The notes beneath the pieces were generated by a model. The model was not told the DNA's origin. It searched no databases and worked only from the letters and a program-made list of their open reading frames with translations. A stretch of 24,637 nucleotides of DNA from a virus (lineage: Duplodnaviria; Caudoviricetes), in IMG/VR virus record IMGVR_UViG_3300037313_000144, positions 1-24,637 of that record. One strand, written 5' to 3'. Every line of letters begins with the position of its first letter. Position 1 is the first letter of the stretch. The position numbers were made by a program, and so were the translations under genes. This document shows positions 5,143 through 24,388 of the stretch, piece by piece.

Positions 5143-5179
5143 AAAGAAAGAGCCTAGAGATAGGCTCTTTTTATTTTTT
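5143..5179. terminator. Bidirectional intrinsic terminator between portal and convergent HNH gene
   Basis: Stem AAAGAGCCTA (5147-5156), loop GAGA, TAGGCTCTTT (5161-5170); A-tract before and T-tract after. Confidence 0.85.
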
Positions 5180-5672
5180 CATCTATATTTTCTTTTTTAG
5201 GATGGTCAAATTTTTCATAATCAGTATTTGGAAAGTTAAGTAAAGCTAAATCACCTCTTAATTTCCATGCCGCATAATCTCTAAGTATTGCTAATTCATG
5301 AATGTCTTTACCAGATGCTATCCAAATTGGTTTGGAATTATGAGACATACTTACTTCATAACAATCTTTTCTCGTACTACGTTTAACTCCAAAATAACCA
5401 GTATCATTATTTCTTTCTCGATTGTGATTACTAATTTGAATATTAACTTGACGTAAGTTTTCTTTACGATTATCTAATTTGTTTCGATTAATATGGTCTA
5501 TTATAAATCCCCTTCTACAAGGACATACTAATTGGTGCATTTTTATTACTTTACTTCCAATAGAAGTTCGTGCATATCCTTTATCATCTACATACCAATT
5601 ATGTCTTGATAATAATACATGGTCATCCATATCCACTAAAATAATTTCACCTTTAGTTCCATATATGTTCAT
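5154..5672 (-). CDS. Free-standing HNH homing endonuclease with C-terminal AP2-like DNA-binding domain
   Basis: MHQLV...IIDHINRNKLDNRKENLR HNH motif; C-terminal 'GYFGV...RDYAAWKLRGDLALLNFP' AP2-like; AGGAGGTG RBS favours ATG 5672. Confidence 0.9.
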   Translation of the reverse strand: MNIYGTKGEIILVDMDDHVLLSRHNWYVDDKGYARTSIGSKVIKMHQLVCPCRRGFIIDHINRNKLDNRKENLRQVNIQISNHNRERNNDTGYFGVKRSTRKDCYEVSMSHNSKPIWIASGKDIHELAILRDYAAWKLRGDLALLNFPNTDYEKFDHPKKENIDEKIKRAYL

Positions 5673-5692
5673 AAAGAACACCTCCTAACACT

Positions 5693-5721
5693 ATTATAGT
5701 TAATTGGTTAAGAGGTGTAAA
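5693..5721 (-). promoter_or_regulatory. SigA-type promoter for the HNH gene
   Basis: Minus strand TTTACA (5721-5716), 17-nt spacer, TATAAT (5698-5693), directly upstream of the RBS. Confidence 0.75.
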
Positions 5722-6088
5722 GTTTTTTCTTCTTTTTTCTAGGATGACCTTTCCACCAATGAATAGACATTGGTGTGCCTGTATCCATCATAAGATGTAG
5801 AAAGTATCCACATCCAAAAAGTAGTGCCCATTTCCAGCTATAGAATACACCTATAGGGAAGGAAAATAGTAACAAACTAGGTATAGTATGAGTAAAACCC
5901 CTATGATTAAAAAGCAACCACATAGGAAAGATTCTTCCCATAGGTGCCGCTTTATGGTCACAATCAGGAAAAACAGAGCCAATAAGGAAAGGAATAGGAT
6001 TAAGAAAGACATCATCGACCCCCACTTGAATCATTACCCATATAATCAATGCGAATTGAAAGTGTATTTTACCTGAGAAAGCACACAC
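5708..6088 (-). CDS. YdjM-like membrane-associated metal-dependent hydrolase
   Basis: FPDCDH, HRGFTH and GYFLHLMMD motifs with hydrophobic helices; GTG start with AGAAGGTGG RBS. Confidence 0.85.
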   Translation of the reverse strand: MCAFSGKIHFQFALIIWVMIQVGVDDVFLNPIPFLIGSVFPDCDHKAAPMGRIFPMWLLFNHRGFTHTIPSLLLFSFPIGVFYSWKWALLFGCGYFLHLMMDTGTPMSIHWWKGHPRKKKKKLYTS

Positions 6089-16125: not shown

Positions 16126-16153
16126 GAGGGAACTGTTGTAGTTCCCTCTTTTT
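16126..16153 (+). terminator. Intrinsic terminator after tail module
   Basis: GAGGGAACT-gttgt-AGTTCCCTC followed by TTTTT. Confidence 0.8.
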
Positions 16154-16177: not shown

Positions 16178-16219
16178 AATTGTAGTTAATACGGAAAATT
16201 TTTGAAGGAGGTAATACTA

Positions 16220-17956
16220 ATGATTTTAAACGAAGCGTCTGGAATGAGCAAGGTTAAAAAGACAAAAAAAGCAAAAAAGAAGAAAACACCTTCTTATTCT
16301 GGCAGTCACCCATTATTAGGTGGACATCGAAATAGTGATGGTGCTAAAAAGAAAAAGAGCAAACCAAAAAAGAAAGTAACACCTTCATATAGCGGTAGTC
16401 ATCCATTACTTGGAGGAAACCGAAATAGTGATGGTGTCACAAAGAAAAAGAAAAAGAGTACATCAAAACATAAAAAGACACCTTCATATTCTGGTAGTCA
16501 TCCACTACTAGGTGGGAATAGAAATAGTGACAAAACTGGATATAAAGCACCAGTTAAAAAGAAAAAGAAAAAAATTACTGCAAAGAATAAAAGCATGATT
16601 AACACGCATGAAGACCAAACAAATAATAAAGCGGTACGTGATGCGTGGAATAAAGCACATGGTATTGGTACAAAGAAAGCACCTACAACTAAAGTAGTAG
16701 CTAAGAAACCTGTTACTTCTACTACTAAAAAACCTGTAGTTTCTACTAAGGCTCCAGTTACGAAAGCACCAGTAAAGACTACAACTCCAAAAACTAATCC
16801 AGTCACAAAGGTACCAGTTGGTAAAGGTAATCCTGTAACAAAGAAGCCAAAATCAACTACTCCAAAGAAGCCAGCTACTAAACCAGCGGCTCCTAAAGCT
16901 ACTGATTGGTCTAAGTATACGAAAGACCAATTATTGAAAGATGACAAATTACGTGCGGATTATATTAAAGCTAATCCAACCTCTGCGTATACAAAAGAAT
17001 GGCAGACTAACGACTACAAGCGTTATAATGACATGATTTTGAACGATAAAGGTATGACTGATGGACAGAGAAAATACTACAATGAATTGCTTGGTAAGTG
17101 GGGTTTTGAAGATTACAATGATGTGAATGTCCAAAATCAATATCACTTGAAACAAGACAAACAGAAAGCCATTGACGCTGAAACTGTACAGTTAAATCAA
17201 AGTTTAGGTACGATGGATGCTCAAGCCTTTCAACAAAAACAACAAATGCAACAAGAAATGGCTACACGTGGTATTACTGATTCTGGTATTGCGGCAGATG
17301 CTTACGCTAGAGCACAAGCATTAAATGGACAAAATTATTCACAAGCGTATGCTGATTCAGCTAAAACTAAAGCAGACATCACTGCACAATATACAGATGC
17401 ATTAAATCAATCGAAACAAACACAAGCGGAAGCTAAAGCGGCTCAAGAAGCGGCTACGGCTGAATCCATTACTGAACAACTGAAAGCACAAACTGAGCAA
17501 GATAAATATCTCACTAGTTCCACTGGTTATGTTTACTTGAATGGTAAAGTGCTGAAAGATAAAGCTGGTAATCCATTAACATCTATGGCATATATGAAAC
17601 TACAAGAAGAGAATCGTCATAACATTGCTGGTGAAAGTGCGGCTATGCAAAAAATCAATAATGACCTTGCAATGGCTACACAAAAACTTAATTACAATTG
17701 GGCATCACTTGACCTTAAATCTCAACAGGCACAAGCTGATATTGCTAATGCTCAAGCTAAATTGGAATTGGCGGCTCGTAATGCAGATACGGCTGAGGTT
17801 CGAGTACAAGCTGGTATCTTAAATAACGAGATTAAGAGTATCCAAAAACAAATTGATGGATACAAAAAGGCTGGTAAGAAAGTTCCTAAGAGTCTTAAAT
17901 CTAAACTTAAAAAAGTAATGGGTAAGATGGACAAACTGGCTAATATGGGAAAGTAG
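16220..17956 (+). CDS. Lys-rich repeat-containing probable internal virion (ejection) protein, 578 aa
   Basis: AAGGAGG RBS before ATG 16220; basic repeats, K/T/P/V linker, Ala/Gln helical C-half; 'MATRGITDSGIAA' resembles podovirus ejection-protein motifs; position after tail genes. Confidence 0.7.
   Translation: MILNEASGMSKVKKTKKAKKKKTPSYSGSHPLLGGHRNSDGAKKKKSKPKKKVTPSYSGSHPLLGGNRNSDGVTKKKKKSTSKHKKTPSYSGSHPLLGGNRNSDKTGYKAPVKKKKKKITAKNKSMINTHEDQTNNKAVRDAWNKAHGIGTKKAPTTKVVAKKPVTSTTKKPVVSTKAPVTKAPVKTTTPKTNPVTKVPVGKGNPVTKKPKSTTPKKPATKPAAPKATDWSKYTKDQLLKDDKLRADYIKANPTSAYTKEWQTNDYKRYNDMILNDKGMTDGQRKYYNELLGKWGFEDYNDVNVQNQYHLKQDKQKAIDAETVQLNQSLGTMDAQAFQQKQQMQQEMATRGITDSGIAADAYARAQALNGQNYSQAYADSAKTKADITAQYTDALNQSKQTQAEAKAAQEAATAESITEQLKAQTEQDKYLTSSTGYVYLNGKVLKDKAGNPLTSMAYMKLQEENRHNIAGESAAMQKINNDLAMATQKLNYNWASLDLKSQQAQADIANAQAKLELAARNADTAEVRVQAGILNNEIKSIQKQIDGYKKAGKKVPKSLKSKLKKVMGKMDKLANMGK
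16286..16531 (+). repeat. Three copies of a 54-nt coding repeat (TPSYSGSHPLLGG[H/N]RNSD)
   Basis: Copies at 16286-16339, 16379-16432 and 16478-16531, separated by poly-Lys spacers; nucleotide differences almost all synonymous. Confidence 0.92.
17947..17953 (+). other. Putative -1 ribosomal frameshift site G GGA AAG
   Basis: X XXY YYZ heptamer in the correct phase directly before the TAG; the -1 frame is open into the NlpC/P60 ORF. Confidence 0.75.
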
Positions 17957-17994
17957 ATGAAAATTCAAACGGAGGTGGTTTAGAAGCTATCAAC

Positions 17995-18771
17995 GTGGGT
18001 AAATCACTTATCGGTAAAACGAAGTACGTCTGGGGTGGTGGACGTACTTCAAATGACATCAAGAATGGTAGGTTTGATTGCTCTGGGTTCGTCAACTACG
18101 CATTTAAGAAATCTGGTATCGACTTAGGTGGAGGAAATACGGATACAATTGCTAAGCAAGGTGTACGTGTAGACCCTAGTGATATGCAAGTTGGTGACAT
18201 TGTTTTCTTTGATACGTATAAGAAAAACGGACATGTCGGTATCTACGTTGGTGATGGTAAATTCATTGGTTCCCAAAGTGCAACTGGTGTGGCTATCGCT
18301 AGTATGTCAAGCGGTTACTTTGCTAAGAAATTTAAAGGTTACGTCATTCGTGTAAATGGTGGAGGACATCAAAAGACAATTGCAGAAGGTAATGCTGAGT
18401 GGGAAAAGAGTAATAGCTACAGTAACATGTGGAAGACAAAGAAATATTCCAGTAGTTCCAGCTATAGGAACTTTACAGGTCACTTGAATGAAGCTATGAC
18501 CAAAGGAGTACCTAGGCAATGGGCTAGTGCAATGGCTGAATTAGTTGGTCGTGAATCCACATGGAATCCGAACGCTAAGAATCCTAAATCAACGGCTCAT
18601 GGTTATGCTCAGTTCCTAAATTCTACAGTTAAAGAATATCAAAGACGTTATCCGAATTTAAAATATAGTAGACCAGTAGACCAATTAATCATGATGTATC
18701 ATTACGTGAAAGACCGTTACGGTACACCAGAGAAAGCGTTGCGGTACTGGGATAAACATAATTACTATTAG
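17995..18771 (+). CDS. NlpC/P60 peptidase plus SLT-like lytic transglycosylase (virion-associated peptidoglycan hydrolase); probably expressed as a frameshift extension from 17953
   Basis: YVWGG, FDCSGF and GHVGIY (NlpC/P60 Cys/His); RESTWNPNA.N..STA.G.AQF (SLT Glu); frame open from 17944. Confidence 0.88.
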   Translation: MGKSLIGKTKYVWGGGRTSNDIKNGRFDCSGFVNYAFKKSGIDLGGGNTDTIAKQGVRVDPSDMQVGDIVFFDTYKKNGHVGIYVGDGKFIGSQSATGVAIASMSSGYFAKKFKGYVIRVNGGGHQKTIAEGNAEWEKSNSYSNMWKTKKYSSSSSYRNFTGHLNEAMTKGVPRQWASAMAELVGRESTWNPNAKNPKSTAHGYAQFLNSTVKEYQRRYPNLKYSRPVDQLIMMYHYVKDRYGTPEKALRYWDKHNYY

Positions 18772-18783
18772 GAGGTTAGTATT

Positions 18784-21700
18784 ATGGTAAAATCAGCCGA
18801 ACAAGTAATGGCTGAAATAGAAGCGGCTATTGGGGGAAAACGAAAGTATAACCTTGATATTCCAGACTACCTTTCTATCCTAGCTAATCATAAGGGCATC
18901 GACTTAGGTGCCCCTATTGATTATTCTGACTTCGATATTTCTACACATAGCACTAAGAAGAAAAAGAAAAAGAAGAATGGGCTAAAGCCTAATTTTTGGG
19001 ATATGATATCTGGTACCCTAGGTCAACCAAGTGGAATATTTACGGATTCTGCTTATCACACTATCAAAGATATAAAAGATAAAAAGAAATCCGCTGGAGA
19101 AAAACTACTGGATATCTTATTCAAGGATTCTATTGGCGGCTCCATTGGTCGTGGTATCAAGAATGGTGCTAAAGAACAGTGGAAAGATTGGACAGATGGT
19201 AAAGCATCATGGGGTGATGTTCCTCTAGTTGGTTTCTTGCATGGTGCAGACAAGGGCTGGAAGCGTGGAGATGACATCATGGAAGAATTAGGTGTCAAGA
19301 ATCGCTGGGGTAAAGTCGGTGGTGGTATTGGTTTAGATATCGCACTTGACCCATTAACCTACTTAACTGGTGGTTTATCAATGGCTACTAAACTAGGAAA
19401 AGTAGCAGAAGTAGCTAAGATGGCTGAACTAGGGGAATCCATTGGTATAGCTGGTAAGTTTAAAAAATCAGATGACTTCTTACAGGCGGCTAGTAAAGTG
19501 TTTAAAGCTAAGTATGCTAAGTATGATGGTCTGTCTGATGATTTAGTGGAAAGAGTTGTAGCTAGGAAGGTTGGTAAATTAGCAGAAGAATTAAAAACTG
19601 CTCGTAATACAACCATCAACTCGAATATTAACAAATGGGGTGTCTCAGTTCCCTTCTCCAATAAAATGACAGGTGCTATTGGTAACATAAGAGAAGGTAG
19701 TTTACTACATCGTACAGAAGCTACTGTAGGTAATGACCTTGTAAAGAATTTAATTGCTAAAGGCGGTAATGATTCTCCATCATTTAAAGCTACATTAGAA
19801 CAAGTAGTTAAAACTAGATATGGTGTAGAACAATTAGGTGAATTGACTAAAACACAATTTGATGACTTAGCTAAACACATGGAACCATTAGTTGATAAAC
19901 TACGTAATCAAAAATCATTACCAGACGTAAAGGTTACACAAGAAGTAGTAGACCAGATAATGCCACAAAAAGACTTCGCTAGATTAATGAATAACTTTAG
20001 AAAACAGAATCTAAAAGGAGCAGGAATCCAAAATTGGGATGCAGTAAAGAATCAATTGAATGAGATTCTATTACAAACTGGACATGATGAGAAACTCCGT
20101 AGTTCCGTAGGTGCTCATTTGGCTGAAATGGTATCTGATTATTGGAAACATACAAAAACTGGTATGCGTGGTATTTCTAAAGCAGACAGAGCGGCAAGAG
20201 CAGAATCAATGAAGTGGGCGAGTACATTCTTAAAAGATACTGAGAAAATTAAGAGTGTAAAAACTACGGTAAAAGAAATACATCCTAAAGGTAATCCTTT
20301 GGATATATCAACTAAGAACGCAAGAGATATCAATAAGGTAACTGATAAACTACGGAAAACAGATTACAATGAAGTGACTAGAGCGAAGACAAAGTTAGAA
20401 CATGTCTTTGATAAACATAATCCGTTCGATGCACGTACTCTAAAAACTGGTGATAAGTTTGTAGATTCAATGGCTGACCACATAGCTGATGCCAATTCTC
20501 GTAAACTAGGGGAAACTGCTATGTACACCAGAGGATTAGAGAAAGTAGCTAAGGTCATCAAGTCAAACAAAATGAGTAAGAAAGAAATGAAGGACGCTAT
20601 TTATTATCTAGAGAAAAAGGCTCCTAAGTCATACGGTAAAGATTGGGTGCCATCTCGAAACGTTAAGAAGTTAGCTGATACCATACGTCCTTTAGTTAAA
20701 GATATTGGTGATGATGATGTAGCGGCTGGTGTATTATCTAATCTATCAAAAAACTACTTCCCACACGTTGTCAATAAATCCAACAAGGCTTTGAAAGAAA
20801 TGATGGAATTCGCAGAACGTCATAAATCACTAAATGGATTAAAGAATGAAAATAAATTCGATAAGTCACGTAGAAGTTTTAAGACCATTGCTGATAGAGA
20901 TGACTACATCGAAGAATTATCCAAACTAAGGACTAAAACTACAGACCCAGATGAACTAGCGTCTATCGACAAGCAACTAGAACACGTAGAAGATATGTTC
21001 GATGTTGATGTAGTTTCAGCATTAACACGAAGGGCTAAAGAGGGTGTTCGTGCTAGAGCAGTAAAGGAAATGCAAACTAAACTCTCTAGATACGGAATGA
21101 TGAAATCCCTTGAAAAAGGCTCTGATGAAATGCCCCCAGAAGGTCTAAAAAGACTTGACAAGGATGAAGTAAAGAAGTTAGGATTAAGTAAAGATGTAGC
21201 ACATTATATGCACAAAGATGTATTAGATGGTCTGAAACGCATAGATGACGTTTTTACAAATGAAGGTATGAATAACGCATATCGACACCTAGCGGCAGTA
21301 TCAGATATCTGGAGACCACTAGTTACTTACTACAAACCAGCCCACTATATAAATAACATGATTGGTAATACATTTACGAATTTAGCGGCTGGTGTGAAAA
21401 CTAGAGATTACAATGTTGCTAGAAAGCTACTGTTCGGATACATGAAGGGTAAACTTTCTGAATCAGAAATGAAGATTATGAAAAATGCGTACAGGCACAA
21501 TGTTATTGCTGGAGGATTCCTATTTGACTCTAAAACTACTTTTGAATTTGCTGAACCTAAGACATTAGAAAAAGTAGCTAAAGCCATAGGTGATAATAAG
21601 GGTATCCGAAAAGCACGTAAAGCTGGTGAAATTGTAGATGATATCTATCGTCTAGCAAACTTCGTTAATGGCCTTGATAAGTACGGTAATGTGGAACGTG

Positions 21701-22257
21701 CCGCTAATCAAGTACGGACATATTTATTCAACTACAATGAACTAACTAACGCTGATAGAGGGATGAGGGTAGCCGTACCATTCTGGAACTGGACAAAGCG
21801 TAATATTCCATTGCAACTACGTTTGTTAATGGAGAATCCAAAGTTCATCTTGAATACAGACAGAATGAGACACCTATTCAATGATGGAGAGAAGGGTGAA
21901 GATTGGCAGAAGAATACTGGAATCAAGGTATCTAAGGATAGATACACTACAGTTCCAGCACCAGCCAATGACTTAGAAATACTGTCTGACCCACTATCAT
22001 TCTTAGGTAGTACCAACCCAGCATTGAAAATGCCATTGGAAATGAAAACGAATAAAAAATTGTACACAGGTAAACCAATCAGTTACGGCTCCAATGAACT
22101 ACAACCAGAAGACATCATTCCCTACCTCATGTCCAATTTGGGTGTAGGTAAAAACGCATACGATGTTGCAAGTGGAGACTCCTCCTTACTTGAAGCAATT
22201 GCGAATATGATTAAATCTACATCCAAAATAAATCCAAAAGGTGGGGGAGGTAATTAA
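18784..22257 (+). CDS. Large probable internal virion / ejection protein (1157 aa)
   Basis: Helical, Lys-rich; 'DIALDPLTYL.GG', 'NYFPH' and 'YLFNY..LT.....VPFWNWTKRNIP' patterns of large podovirus internal proteins; last gene before the lysis cassette. Confidence 0.7.
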   Translation: MVKSAEQVMAEIEAAIGGKRKYNLDIPDYLSILANHKGIDLGAPIDYSDFDISTHSTKKKKKKKNGLKPNFWDMISGTLGQPSGIFTDSAYHTIKDIKDKKKSAGEKLLDILFKDSIGGSIGRGIKNGAKEQWKDWTDGKASWGDVPLVGFLHGADKGWKRGDDIMEELGVKNRWGKVGGGIGLDIALDPLTYLTGGLSMATKLGKVAEVAKMAELGESIGIAGKFKKSDDFLQAASKVFKAKYAKYDGLSDDLVERVVARKVGKLAEELKTARNTTINSNINKWGVSVPFSNKMTGAIGNIREGSLLHRTEATVGNDLVKNLIAKGGNDSPSFKATLEQVVKTRYGVEQLGELTKTQFDDLAKHMEPLVDKLRNQKSLPDVKVTQEVVDQIMPQKDFARLMNNFRKQNLKGAGIQNWDAVKNQLNEILLQTGHDEKLRSSVGAHLAEMVSDYWKHTKTGMRGISKADRAARAESMKWASTFLKDTEKIKSVKTTVKEIHPKGNPLDISTKNARDINKVTDKLRKTDYNEVTRAKTKLEHVFDKHNPFDARTLKTGDKFVDSMADHIADANSRKLGETAMYTRGLEKVAKVIKSNKMSKKEMKDAIYYLEKKAPKSYGKDWVPSRNVKKLADTIRPLVKDIGDDDVAAGVLSNLSKNYFPHVVNKSNKALKEMMEFAERHKSLNGLKNENKFDKSRRSFKTIADRDDYIEELSKLRTKTTDPDELASIDKQLEHVEDMFDVDVVSALTRRAKEGVRARAVKEMQTKLSRYGMMKSLEKGSDEMPPEGLKRLDKDEVKKLGLSKDVAHYMHKDVLDGLKRIDDVFTNEGMNNAYRHLAAVSDIWRPLVTYYKPAHYINNMIGNTFTNLAAGVKTRDYNVARKLLFGYMKGKLSESEMKIMKNAYRHNVIAGGFLFDSKTTFEFAEPKTLEKVAKAIGDNKGIRKARKAGEIVDDIYRLANFVNGLDKYGNVERAANQVRTYLFNYNELTNADRGMRVAVPFWNWTKRNIPLQLRLLMENPKFILNTDRMRHLFNDGEKGEDWQKNTGIKVSKDRYTTVPAPANDLEILSDPLSFLGSTNPALKMPLEMKTNKKLYTGKPISYGSNELQPEDIIPYLMSNLGVGKNAYDVASGDSSLLEAIANMIKSTSKINPKGGGGN

Positions 22258-23349: not shown

Positions 23350-23778
23350 GTCATACCAATCTAATGCTCGTTTAGAGTAGTCCAACATTTTCACAAAGTC
23401 TTCTCTACCATTCTTGTAATTTGCTCTTTGTGCATACTTGATAATATGTCCAATCGCAAACCCCATGAATACATCTGGTGGAAAACCTTCCTGTAGGAAC
23501 TGGATGGTATCTATGTTATGCTGGTGATAATGTGCTGGTTTATTAAATACTTTCTCTAGTTCCTCCCATTCCTTTTTAAATCGTGCGGATTCTTCTGGTG
23601 TAAGATTTTTAGCTTCCAATGGTTTATTAATAGCTTGCTCTAGTTTCTTACCCATTTCACGTGATTCTTGATAACACGATATACAATACGAATTACCTTC
23701 ATGTAAAGTTCTTATTTCACCTAGTTCAAATAATCTATGACAAACACAACAATGATTGTCATTGTAAGGTTTCTGCAT
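23335..23778 (-). CDS. DUF3310-domain protein with N-terminal Cys-rich (Zn-finger-like) region
   Basis: 'KPAHY...IDTI...F..G.IIKY..RA..KNG.ED..K...Y' DUF3310 pattern; CCVC...CISC at N-terminus. Confidence 0.8.
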   Translation of the reverse strand: MQKPYNDNHCCVCHRLFELGEIRTLHEGNSYCISCYQESREMGKKLEQAINKPLEAKNLTPEESARFKKEWEELEKVFNKPAHYHQHNIDTIQFLQEGFPPDVFMGFAIGHIIKYAQRANYKNGREDFVKMLDYSKRALDWYDKTHS

Positions 23779-24388
23779 GTGCGGAAATCACTCCTCTAAA
23801 ATTCTTTGTCAATTCACAAACTTGTGTGAATGAAGTTTTCTGGTAGTGCATAAGATAAGGTAGGAATCCTGATTTATCCTCACCGATGTCACATTGATTT
23901 ATATCACCAGCTACTACACCATGACTAGAATCATGTAATCGTGTGAGGACTTTCTTTATTTCTCGTTTAGTACAATTTTGTGCTTCATCTAGGAATACAA
24001 TAGCGTTTTTAATATTACCACCACGCATATAGTTATGAGAATAAGCATGAATGTAAGCATGTGGTCTGAATTCATATTTACTGAAAATGACTTTCTCTGG
24101 GTTATCACCAATGGCAATGATGGCATCATACAAAGCGGTTAGATATTTACGCTCTTTTTCTGTTTCATCACCTTTAGTGAAACCTAACGCACCTTCTTCT
24201 ACAGTAGGAAAAATATAATGTAAGTGCTTACCCATAATTTTTGCAGTACCTACAGGAATTGTTGTTTTACCACTACCAGCCCTTGCCTGTACAAATGTCA
24301 TGAGATTGTCTACAATTGAGTCACCATACATTTCTTGTTCCTCAGTTAAGTTTAGGCCATAAAATAATGTATTTTTAGGTAGCGGCAT
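23759..24388 (-). CDS. phoH: PhoH-family ATPase
   Basis: Walker A ARAGSGKT, 'YMRG', 'FLDEAQN', 'GDINQCD', 'NFRG'. Confidence 0.92.
   Translation of the reverse strand: MPLPKNTLFYGLNLTEEQEMYGDSIVDNLMTFVQARAGSGKTTIPVGTAKIMGKHLHYIFPTVEEGALGFTKGDETEKERKYLTALYDAIIAIGDNPEKVIFSKYEFRPHAYIHAYSHNYMRGGNIKNAIVFLDEAQNCTKREIKKVLTRLHDSSHGVVAGDINQCDIGEDKSGFLPYLMHYQKTSFTQVCELTKNFRGVISAHAETLQ

Follow-up and report, generated by a model that had tools for sequence, protein, structure and literature searches.

Probable recoding between a likely ejection protein gene and a peptidoglycan hydrolase frame in a soil phage and its relatives

The question raised by the viral DNA considered here (IMG/VR record IMGVR_UViG_3300037313_000144, Duplodnaviria; Caudoviricetes; all 24,637 nucleotides (nt), referred to below as the window) is how a frame for two predicted peptidoglycan hydrolase domains comes to be translated when it appears to have no start of its own and opens in the -1 register at the very end of another gene. 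The upstream open reading frame, ORF1, encodes a protein of 578 amino acids (aa) and is followed by the hydrolase frame, ORF2, and by a larger gene, ORF3. Based on comparisons of sequence, we assign a probability of roughly 0.87 to the explanation that programmed frameshifting at the end of ORF1 yields both the 578-aa protein and an 850-aa hydrolase fusion. A first-pass annotation of the window had proposed a -1 frameshift with products of 578 and ~850 aa, and the proposal is supported by the lack of an indel at the junction, the conservation of shift motifs among relatives, the loss in some of them of the apparent ORF2 start codon, GTG, and the existence elsewhere of the same two parts as in-frame fusions.

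The end of ORF1 and the frame behind it

The last codons of ORF1 read ATG GGA AAG TAG and place the heptamer G_GGA_AAG in X_XXY_YYZ phase, as the first-pass annotation had it. The -1 frame carries a TAA at 17941, is open from 17944 and reads YGKVDENSNGGGLEAINVGKSLIGKTKYVWGG through to 18771, and its predicted passage into NlpC/P60 and SLT domains has been borne out by Pfam matches to both (Table 1). Across 18 window genes with 6658 codon positions, 24 positions carry an in-phase heptamer, and the one at 17947-17953 is alone in being located at an ORF end; the string GGGAAAG is found just once on the plus strand of the window. The 158 other ORF ends present in 16 related loci include one with an in-phase heptamer in the last three codon positions and two of the CCC-stop type. 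A zero-frame mini-ORF of eight codons, running from an ATG at 17957 directly after the stop, was considered and rejected, as it is not kept in the related locus L016.

The profile matches and catalytic residues of ORF2 are those of an NlpC/P60 (C40) endopeptidase followed by an SLT lytic transglycosylase, the activities themselves being predicted. The first domain aligns from residue 9 with the catalytic domain of Bacillus subtilis CwlO (PDB 23tz/8wt3; E 7.5e-37), and its C46 and H97 are invariant in 11 of 11 aligned sequences. For the second, the SLT profile score is 23.5 against a cut-off of 21.3, and E204-S205 are invariant in all eight sequences aligned. The tryptic peptide that would be diagnostic of the fusion in the window phage is VDENSNGGGLEAINVGK.

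No start that could serve ORF2 independently is apparent. The GTG at 17995, which the first-pass annotation had described as annotated and as cutting into the first NlpC/P60 helix, does fall within the stretch aligned to the first helix of the CwlO catalytic domain, but it is annotated only in the sense that an ORF finder took it as the first available start. Its duplex with the anti-Shine-Dalgarno (anti-SD) motif is estimated at -3.5 kcal/mol, compared with -5.9 to -13.6 kcal/mol for all 14 other window starts that were scored. The weak duplex and the loss of the codon in close relatives that retain the heptamer led to the rejection of GTG 17995 as the ORF2 start. The -1 frame residues 5' of this codon align with the start of the CwlO catalytic domain and with an in-frame fusion, P0010, and are thus coding. 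In L015, whose ORF2 is 81% identical, the first start codon is at residue 74, past the catalytic Cys; in L016 it is at residue 65, just 5' of the catalytic Glu, and in L116 there is none before the domain. An ORF2 start with a normal SD was found neither in the window nor in L015, L016, L017, L007, L112, L116 or L117. Among 24 database homologs of ORF2 that were inspected, 13 had been called without the catalytic Cys motif, although some of these may be contig fragments.

The junction in related phages

When split junctions were read as DNA, all 10 distinct ones ended ORF1 on a shift-type motif that matched the frame of the hydrolase. The -1 motifs are G_GGA_AAG in the window, L015 and L016 (where the extension is SLT only), A_AAT_TTT in L017, G_GGT_TTT in the Pageviruses Pascal and Page (and in seven of seven Pagevirus records) and G_GAT_TTT in L116. 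The +1 motifs are CCC_TAG in L007 and CCC_TAA in L112 and L117; the latter two sites were predicted from the N-termini of the called proteins (F-P-N and Y-P-K) before they were found in the DNA. At sequence level, then, the junction is real and conserved and probably serves recoding, and the alignment of homologs that the first-pass annotation had called for turned up shift motifs that are kept and no well-spaced ribosome-binding site (RBS) with a start. The ORF1 of L007 is homologous to that of the window (hhalign 95%). The Pagevirus-type ORF1 proteins (Pascal, Page, L112, L116 and L117) gave no direct profile match to window ORF1; the two types are linked by P0171, which matches Pascal at E 6e-15 and the window at E 7e-6.

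A survey of proteins extends this picture. The end of the ORF1 core is reached at E < 1e-10 by 82 of 276 proteins, which form 54 clusters at 70% identity, 37 of them split and 17 fused in frame; the same two parts are thus joined in P0010 and in 16 other clusters, as the first-pass annotation had suggested might be seen. The split clusters end in GK (20), P (6), GF followed by 0-2 residues (2), NF (1) or KK (1), so that 30 of the 37 are compatible with a shift. The P class is mixed, since the LP end of L116 belongs to a -1 site. The motif G_GGA_AAR needs a codon ending in G before the GK, and the residue preceding a terminal GK lacks such a codon in none of 20 cases, compared with 80 of 215 internal xGK positions. 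The 17 fused tails comprise 13 with an SLT-type motif, one with a Pfam SLT match, two that are PF21277 and one unassigned, which makes 16 of 17 hydrolase-type.

On a tree from a quick search of 52 clusters (two of the 54 rows were excluded for short cores), the fused and split states are interleaved, with at least 10 changes for the fused state and at least eight for the GK-stop state, of which the starred branches force six and four, respectively. Sister pairs join P-stop with GK-stop and fused with GF-stop forms. The frame states therefore interchange, with -1, +1 and in-frame versions all present among relatives, and some 30 clusters, at identities as low as about 30%, retain the split state with its motif.

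Several relatives show variations on the arrangement. A PF21277 (VgrG3-like C-terminal) domain takes the place of NlpC/SLT at the same junction in P0011, P0015 and P0151, which suggests that the enzyme cassette is swappable. At the point where L017 ends in N-F, the in-frame fusions P0010, P0011 and P0015 continue to N-F-K; should their codons be A_AAT_TTT_AAA, fusions of this type may run a reversed design in which a -1 shift reaches a stop and gives the short form. In L118 (3255-4422) and L120 (3303-4525), SLT and NlpC/P60 are on two separate small genes, each with its own start and its own Gln-rich leader, and this is a third architecture of the same hydrolase module. L035 and L123 are in-frame fusions, while L121 and L122 are unrelated; the distant fusion L035 contains one in-phase heptamer close to its linker, without clear meaning. 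A motif scan yielded 50 loci, with long frames on both sides in just the five that were already known. P0029 had no matches in viral contigs, a plasmid search returned generic NlpC matches only, and no longer forms of 1291-3685 aa were found, though this length window is uninformative.

The Pagevirus records (Page, Pony, Pookie, Pascal, Palmer, Pavlov and poppyseed) place the start of a "lytic tail protein" inside the NlpC/P60 domain, at two different positions; examples are L001 at 5028 and L002 at 5133, and further ones are in L052-L056. These starts are probably misannotated.

Weighing the explanations

The simplest objection to a recoding junction is that the offset between the frames is a sequencing or assembly indel, or that a single gene was recently broken, and the 17 of 54 homolog clusters that are single in-frame fusions give it some footing. 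The check that the first-pass annotation had asked for at 17947-17953 was made on assembled contigs, and independent ones show no indel there. Identical proteins are encoded in three other IMG/VR contigs; contigs from runs X1 and X3, at 31x and 78x and possibly from the source samples, have no differences over 17500-18400; X11 shows no difference across the junction either, and a variant in X12 that is not from the source has nine substitutions and no gap. Relatives about 86% identical in three runs of one study (X13, X14 and X16) span the junction with a net length change of 0 or -3 and, among the matches listed, no change within 17945-17956, while GTA replaces GTG 17995 at all covering depth. 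Contigs of eight runs are free of a junction indel, and the PCR-confirmed genome of the isolate Pascal and six other Pagevirus records have the same layout. Assembly error was accordingly rejected at the contig level, and we find this explanation barely credible. A different possibility is that ORF2 is a separate gene, translated at a low level either from a non-canonical start behind the SD-like run (17971-78) or by ribosomes that re-initiate past the stop, with the heptamer incidental or secondary. Strong SD-like duplexes (-11 to -15.6 kcal/mol) do occur within 28 nt past the stop at nine of 10 junctions and are rarer in controls (three of 520 coding windows, 16 of the 207 windows with Gly-Gly and 10 of the 53 with a Gly run), although the ten loci are related and do not represent ten independent events. 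The Pageviruses also have an in-frame ATA 7 nt behind GGAGG, and the hydrolases of L118 and L120 are separate genes with real starts. However, the junctions share no in-frame start behind the SD-like run, whatever the spacing; at 7 nt behind GGAGG one finds GAA, AAC, AAA, GCA, ATA and CAG, and L116 and L117 have no candidate. The run itself encodes the Gly-Gly that also opens the CwlO domain, ORF2 has no N-terminal leader of the kind seen in L118 and L120, and five motifs that always match the frame offset would be left unexplained. We regard a separate gene as very unlikely. The SD-like run may reflect the choice of linker codons or a leftover RBS; it may also act as a weak start of its own or as a stimulator.

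It might also be supposed that a fusion does form, but through transcriptional slippage or a low-level translational error that rescues an indel, as a kind of "indifferent" domain shuffling with no selected ratio of products. The interleaving of fused, -1 and +1 states on the tree, as with immunoglobulin-like (Ig-like) extensions, and the lack of a conserved RNA stimulator are in keeping with this; the indifference of decoding in the Ig-like case is attributed to chance in the relevant passages of a review of recoding (PMC5009743). The motifs found here, however, are of the tRNA re-pairing type rather than long homopolymer runs, and the split state with its motif is kept in about 30 clusters even though a single-base change could readily restore the frame if the fusion were all that counted. 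Such indifferent shuffling strikes us as highly improbable.

Programmed frameshifting remains the preferred explanation, and several observations weigh against it. Seven of the 37 split clusters lack a motif residue at the end (three have GK 1-5 residues earlier and four have nothing obvious), and about 33 of the 37 are known from protein alone. In the more distant relatives L029, L033, L036, L038/L044, L039, L043 and phage API480 other genes come directly after the ORF1-like gene, with no hydrolase frame, so that the hydrolase is not a universal companion of ORF1. The SD-like duplexes described above could serve independent initiation. A downstream hairpin that the first-pass annotation had put forward as a stimulator is not supported: it folds in the window (z -3.0 over 40 nt) but not in L015 (83% identical; z -0.7) or L016 (58% identical; z +0.2). 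Over six junctions other than that of the window, z ranges from -1.7 to +0.9, and no conserved hairpin was found. Upstream of the site, the potential SD duplexes range from -0.7 to -6.7, none of them strong. Fold searches with ORF1 against PDB and BFVD (threshold E <= 0.001) returned nothing that would back its postulated ejection role, and an atlas search likewise gave no family. A wider proposal, by which a group of Bacillota podophages would tune the number of hydrolase-bearing ejected subunits by recoding, switching repeatedly between in-frame, -1 and +1 decoding under stimulation by a start-less SD 3' of the site (for example through a bound 30S roadblock), seems doubtful to us; the literature passages on recoding that were consulted contained no mention of a start-less 3' SD as a frameshift stimulator.

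Genome setting, precedents and meaning

The window, a 24.6-kb virus record of 51% completeness (CheckV), carries a phage morphogenesis module in which terminase, P22-like portal and major capsid genes, a weak match to an SU10-type adaptor and fibre genes are followed by ORF1, ORF2, ORF3 and a lysozyme-type endolysin. No tail-tube or tape-measure protein was matched in scans of 14 and 13 window proteins. The closest cultivated matches of the portal and of a 628-aa tail protein are in the Paenibacillus phages API480 and SV21, and those of ORF2 are in the Bacillus megaterium Pageviruses, of which Pascal is a podophage by transmission electron microscopy (Pascal genome announcement). From the portal and tail genes, these closest matches and the Pagevirus morphology we infer that the window phage is short-tailed and infects a host of the Bacillota. 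The 628-aa protein is closest to phage "stabilization" clusters (0.87-0.88), which serves as a lead only, and the runs that contain window DNA are soil and rhizosphere metagenomes. Just upstream of ORF1, a terminator-like hairpin with T-runs on both strands (16126-16148) suggests that ORF1 to ORF3 form a transcription unit of their own. Elsewhere, two minus-strand ORFs are inserted between the portal and scaffold genes (5154-5681 and 5708-6088), which by eye we take to be HNH endonuclease-like and membrane metal-dependent hydrolase-like, respectively, and a third (23759-24388) is presumably a PhoH-like ATPase.

Table 1. Features at and around the ORF1-ORF2 junction (window positions)
Feature	Position	Strand	Remarks
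ORF1 RBS, strong	16205..16212	+	anti-SD duplex -13.5 kcal/mol
ORF1, 578 aa, zero-frame product; likely internal virion (ejection-type) protein	16220..17956	+	role from gene position
ORF2, open -1 frame; predicted 272-aa C-terminal extension giving an 850-aa fusion	17944..18771	+	from sequence
-1 slippery heptamer G_GGA_AAG, in phase, immediately 5' of stop	17947..17953	+	same heptamer in L015 and L016
ORF1 stop TAG next to shift site; possible pause	17954..17956	+	stop 0-2 codons past motif at 10/10 junctions
NlpC/P60 endopeptidase domain, CwlO-like; Cys 18079-81, His 18232-34	17968..18354	+	PF00877, E 1e-25
SD-like run GGAGGTGG, 17 nt 3' of heptamer; encodes Gly-Gly in -1 frame	17971..17978	+	duplex -15.2
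GTG, first start taken by ORF finder, not conserved	17995..17997	+	GTT in L015, GTA in all covering contigs of runs X13/X14/X16, ATA in L007, GCT in L017
SLT/lysozyme-like domain; putative catalytic Glu 18553-55	18466..18768	+	PF01464, E 4e-5
ORF3, 1157 aa, own RBS; likely large ejection protein by context	18784..22257	+	same position in relatives

The ORF1 protein has a variable Lys/Thr/Pro-rich N-terminus (about aa 1-228), followed by a conserved core that is predicted to consist mostly of long helices (predicted local distance difference test, pLDDT, 74; predicted template modelling score, pTM, 0.48). Three imperfect repeats (TPSYSGSHPLLGG-RNSD) are recognizable in the Lys-rich part (16285-16535), and this repeat-bearing region is entirely different between close homologs. 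ORF1 matched no Pfam or PHROG family, no cultured phage by blastn or tblastn, and nothing in alignments against metagenome and genome contigs; an alignment of ORF3 against genomes was likewise without matches. As is typical of podovirus ejection genes, ORF1 lies in a cluster of large unannotated ORFs with nozzle/fibre genes on one side and lysis genes on the other. Because of this position, and because hydrolases are known as fusions to ejection proteins, the ORF1 product is likely to be an internal virion protein that is ejected.

The sequence of events that we envisage begins with the tandem slip of tRNA-Gly and tRNA-Lys from GGA AAG onto GGG AAA, which the adjacent stop would promote as a likely place for the ribosome to pause. 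A fraction of ribosomes would thereby shift to -1 and make the 850-aa fusion alongside the 578-aa product, the fusion being a minor form and the only substantial source of the hydrolase. Both forms would be packaged as internal virion proteins and ejected via the short tail. A few enzyme-tipped subunits might then attack the thick Gram-positive wall, NlpC/P60 cutting its peptide cross-links and SLT its glycan strands, with plain subunits forming the rest of the conduit, and the frameshift would set the ratio of enzyme to scaffold.

The elements of such a scheme have precedents. In passages of the recoding review by Atkins et al. (2016; PMC5009743), G_GGA_AAG is described as very prone to shifting in E. 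coli, T7 gene 10 and other viruses are noted to use G_GU and G_GA first triplets, and a +1 shift at CCC_UGA is given for Listeria phages. The same passages describe Ig-like extensions that are added indifferently by -1, +1 or in-frame decoding. These extensions (T3/T7 gp10A/B, Lactobacillus A2, Listeria PSA/A118/A500) resemble the present case in the production of a short and an extended virion protein from a shift site at the gene end, and in the interchange of -1, +1 (CCC-stop) and in-frame versions across relatives (PMC5009743). In the present case, by contrast, the added part is a peptidoglycan hydrolase (NlpC/P60 with SLT, SLT only, or PF21277), carried by what is likely an internal protein of the ejection type and not by a subunit of the capsid or tail tube.

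The gpG/gpGT pair of phage lambda is similar in that a morphogenesis gene contains, close to its end, a -1 shift that sets the ratio of two products. The lambda G/GT heptamer is GGGAAAG. The same heptamer is given for HCTV-5 g-t in the passages of PMC5009743. Those proteins, however, are non-virion chaperones of long tails, with sites located between tail-tube and tape-measure genes and extensions that are non-catalytic, whereas the window junction is placed otherwise, accompanies a P22-like portal and adds an enzymatic extension.

The nearest precedent is gp39/gp40 of the Alteromonas podovirus vB_AspP-H4/4, where a putative -1 frameshift joins a lysin domain to an internal virion protein (PMC5658483; MF278336). 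There the polarity is reversed, with the enzyme first and a free lysin as the short product, the phage is T7-like with a Gram-negative host, and the proposal is a one-sentence in silico note. Virion proteins with and without a C-terminal peptidoglycan hydrolase are also described for the lactococcal Tal2009 and TalTP901-1, the full-length Tal performing better on stationary cells (PMC6115969); in Tuc2009 and TP901-1, however, the two forms arise by proteolytic processing in siphovirus tail tips and not by recoding. T7 gp16, SP6 gp36 and phiKMV gp36 likewise carry a hydrolase domain on an internal virion protein, a domain that is mobile between ejection proteins (PMC8954989 and PMC5380687), but as constitutive in-frame fusions in phages of Gram-negative hosts. 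The word "frameshift" is absent from both of these ejection-protein reviews. Pagevirus gp17-18 resemble the window in gene order and in having the NlpC/P60 and SLT frame in the -1 register, and all seven records show an in-phase heptamer; their annotation differs, with two genes and starts that fall within the domain, and their ORF1 is only distantly related. No description of the ORF1/hydrolase junction was found in a literature search with thin coverage of subscription journals, and none of the six Pagevirus genome announcements was retrieved when "frameshift" was required.

Extension of virion proteins by frameshifting is known for Ig-like domains; here the predicted extension is an enzyme. 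If the explanation given here is correct, programmed frameshifting in tailed phages, familiar from tail chaperones and Ig-like decoration, would gain a third common role, that of setting the dose of a virion enzyme, and the annotation of all seven Pagevirus genomes would be corrected. The cultivated Pageviruses, whose laboratory host is harmless, make the claim directly testable. With its in-frame, -1 and +1 junctions, the family also lends itself to asking whether selection maintains recoding for the sake of a ratio or only tolerates it. The finding would bear, in addition, on the passage of short-tailed phages other than the phi29 group through the thick Gram-positive wall, a process that has barely been described, the available ejection-protein review covering Gram-negative hosts (PMC5380687).

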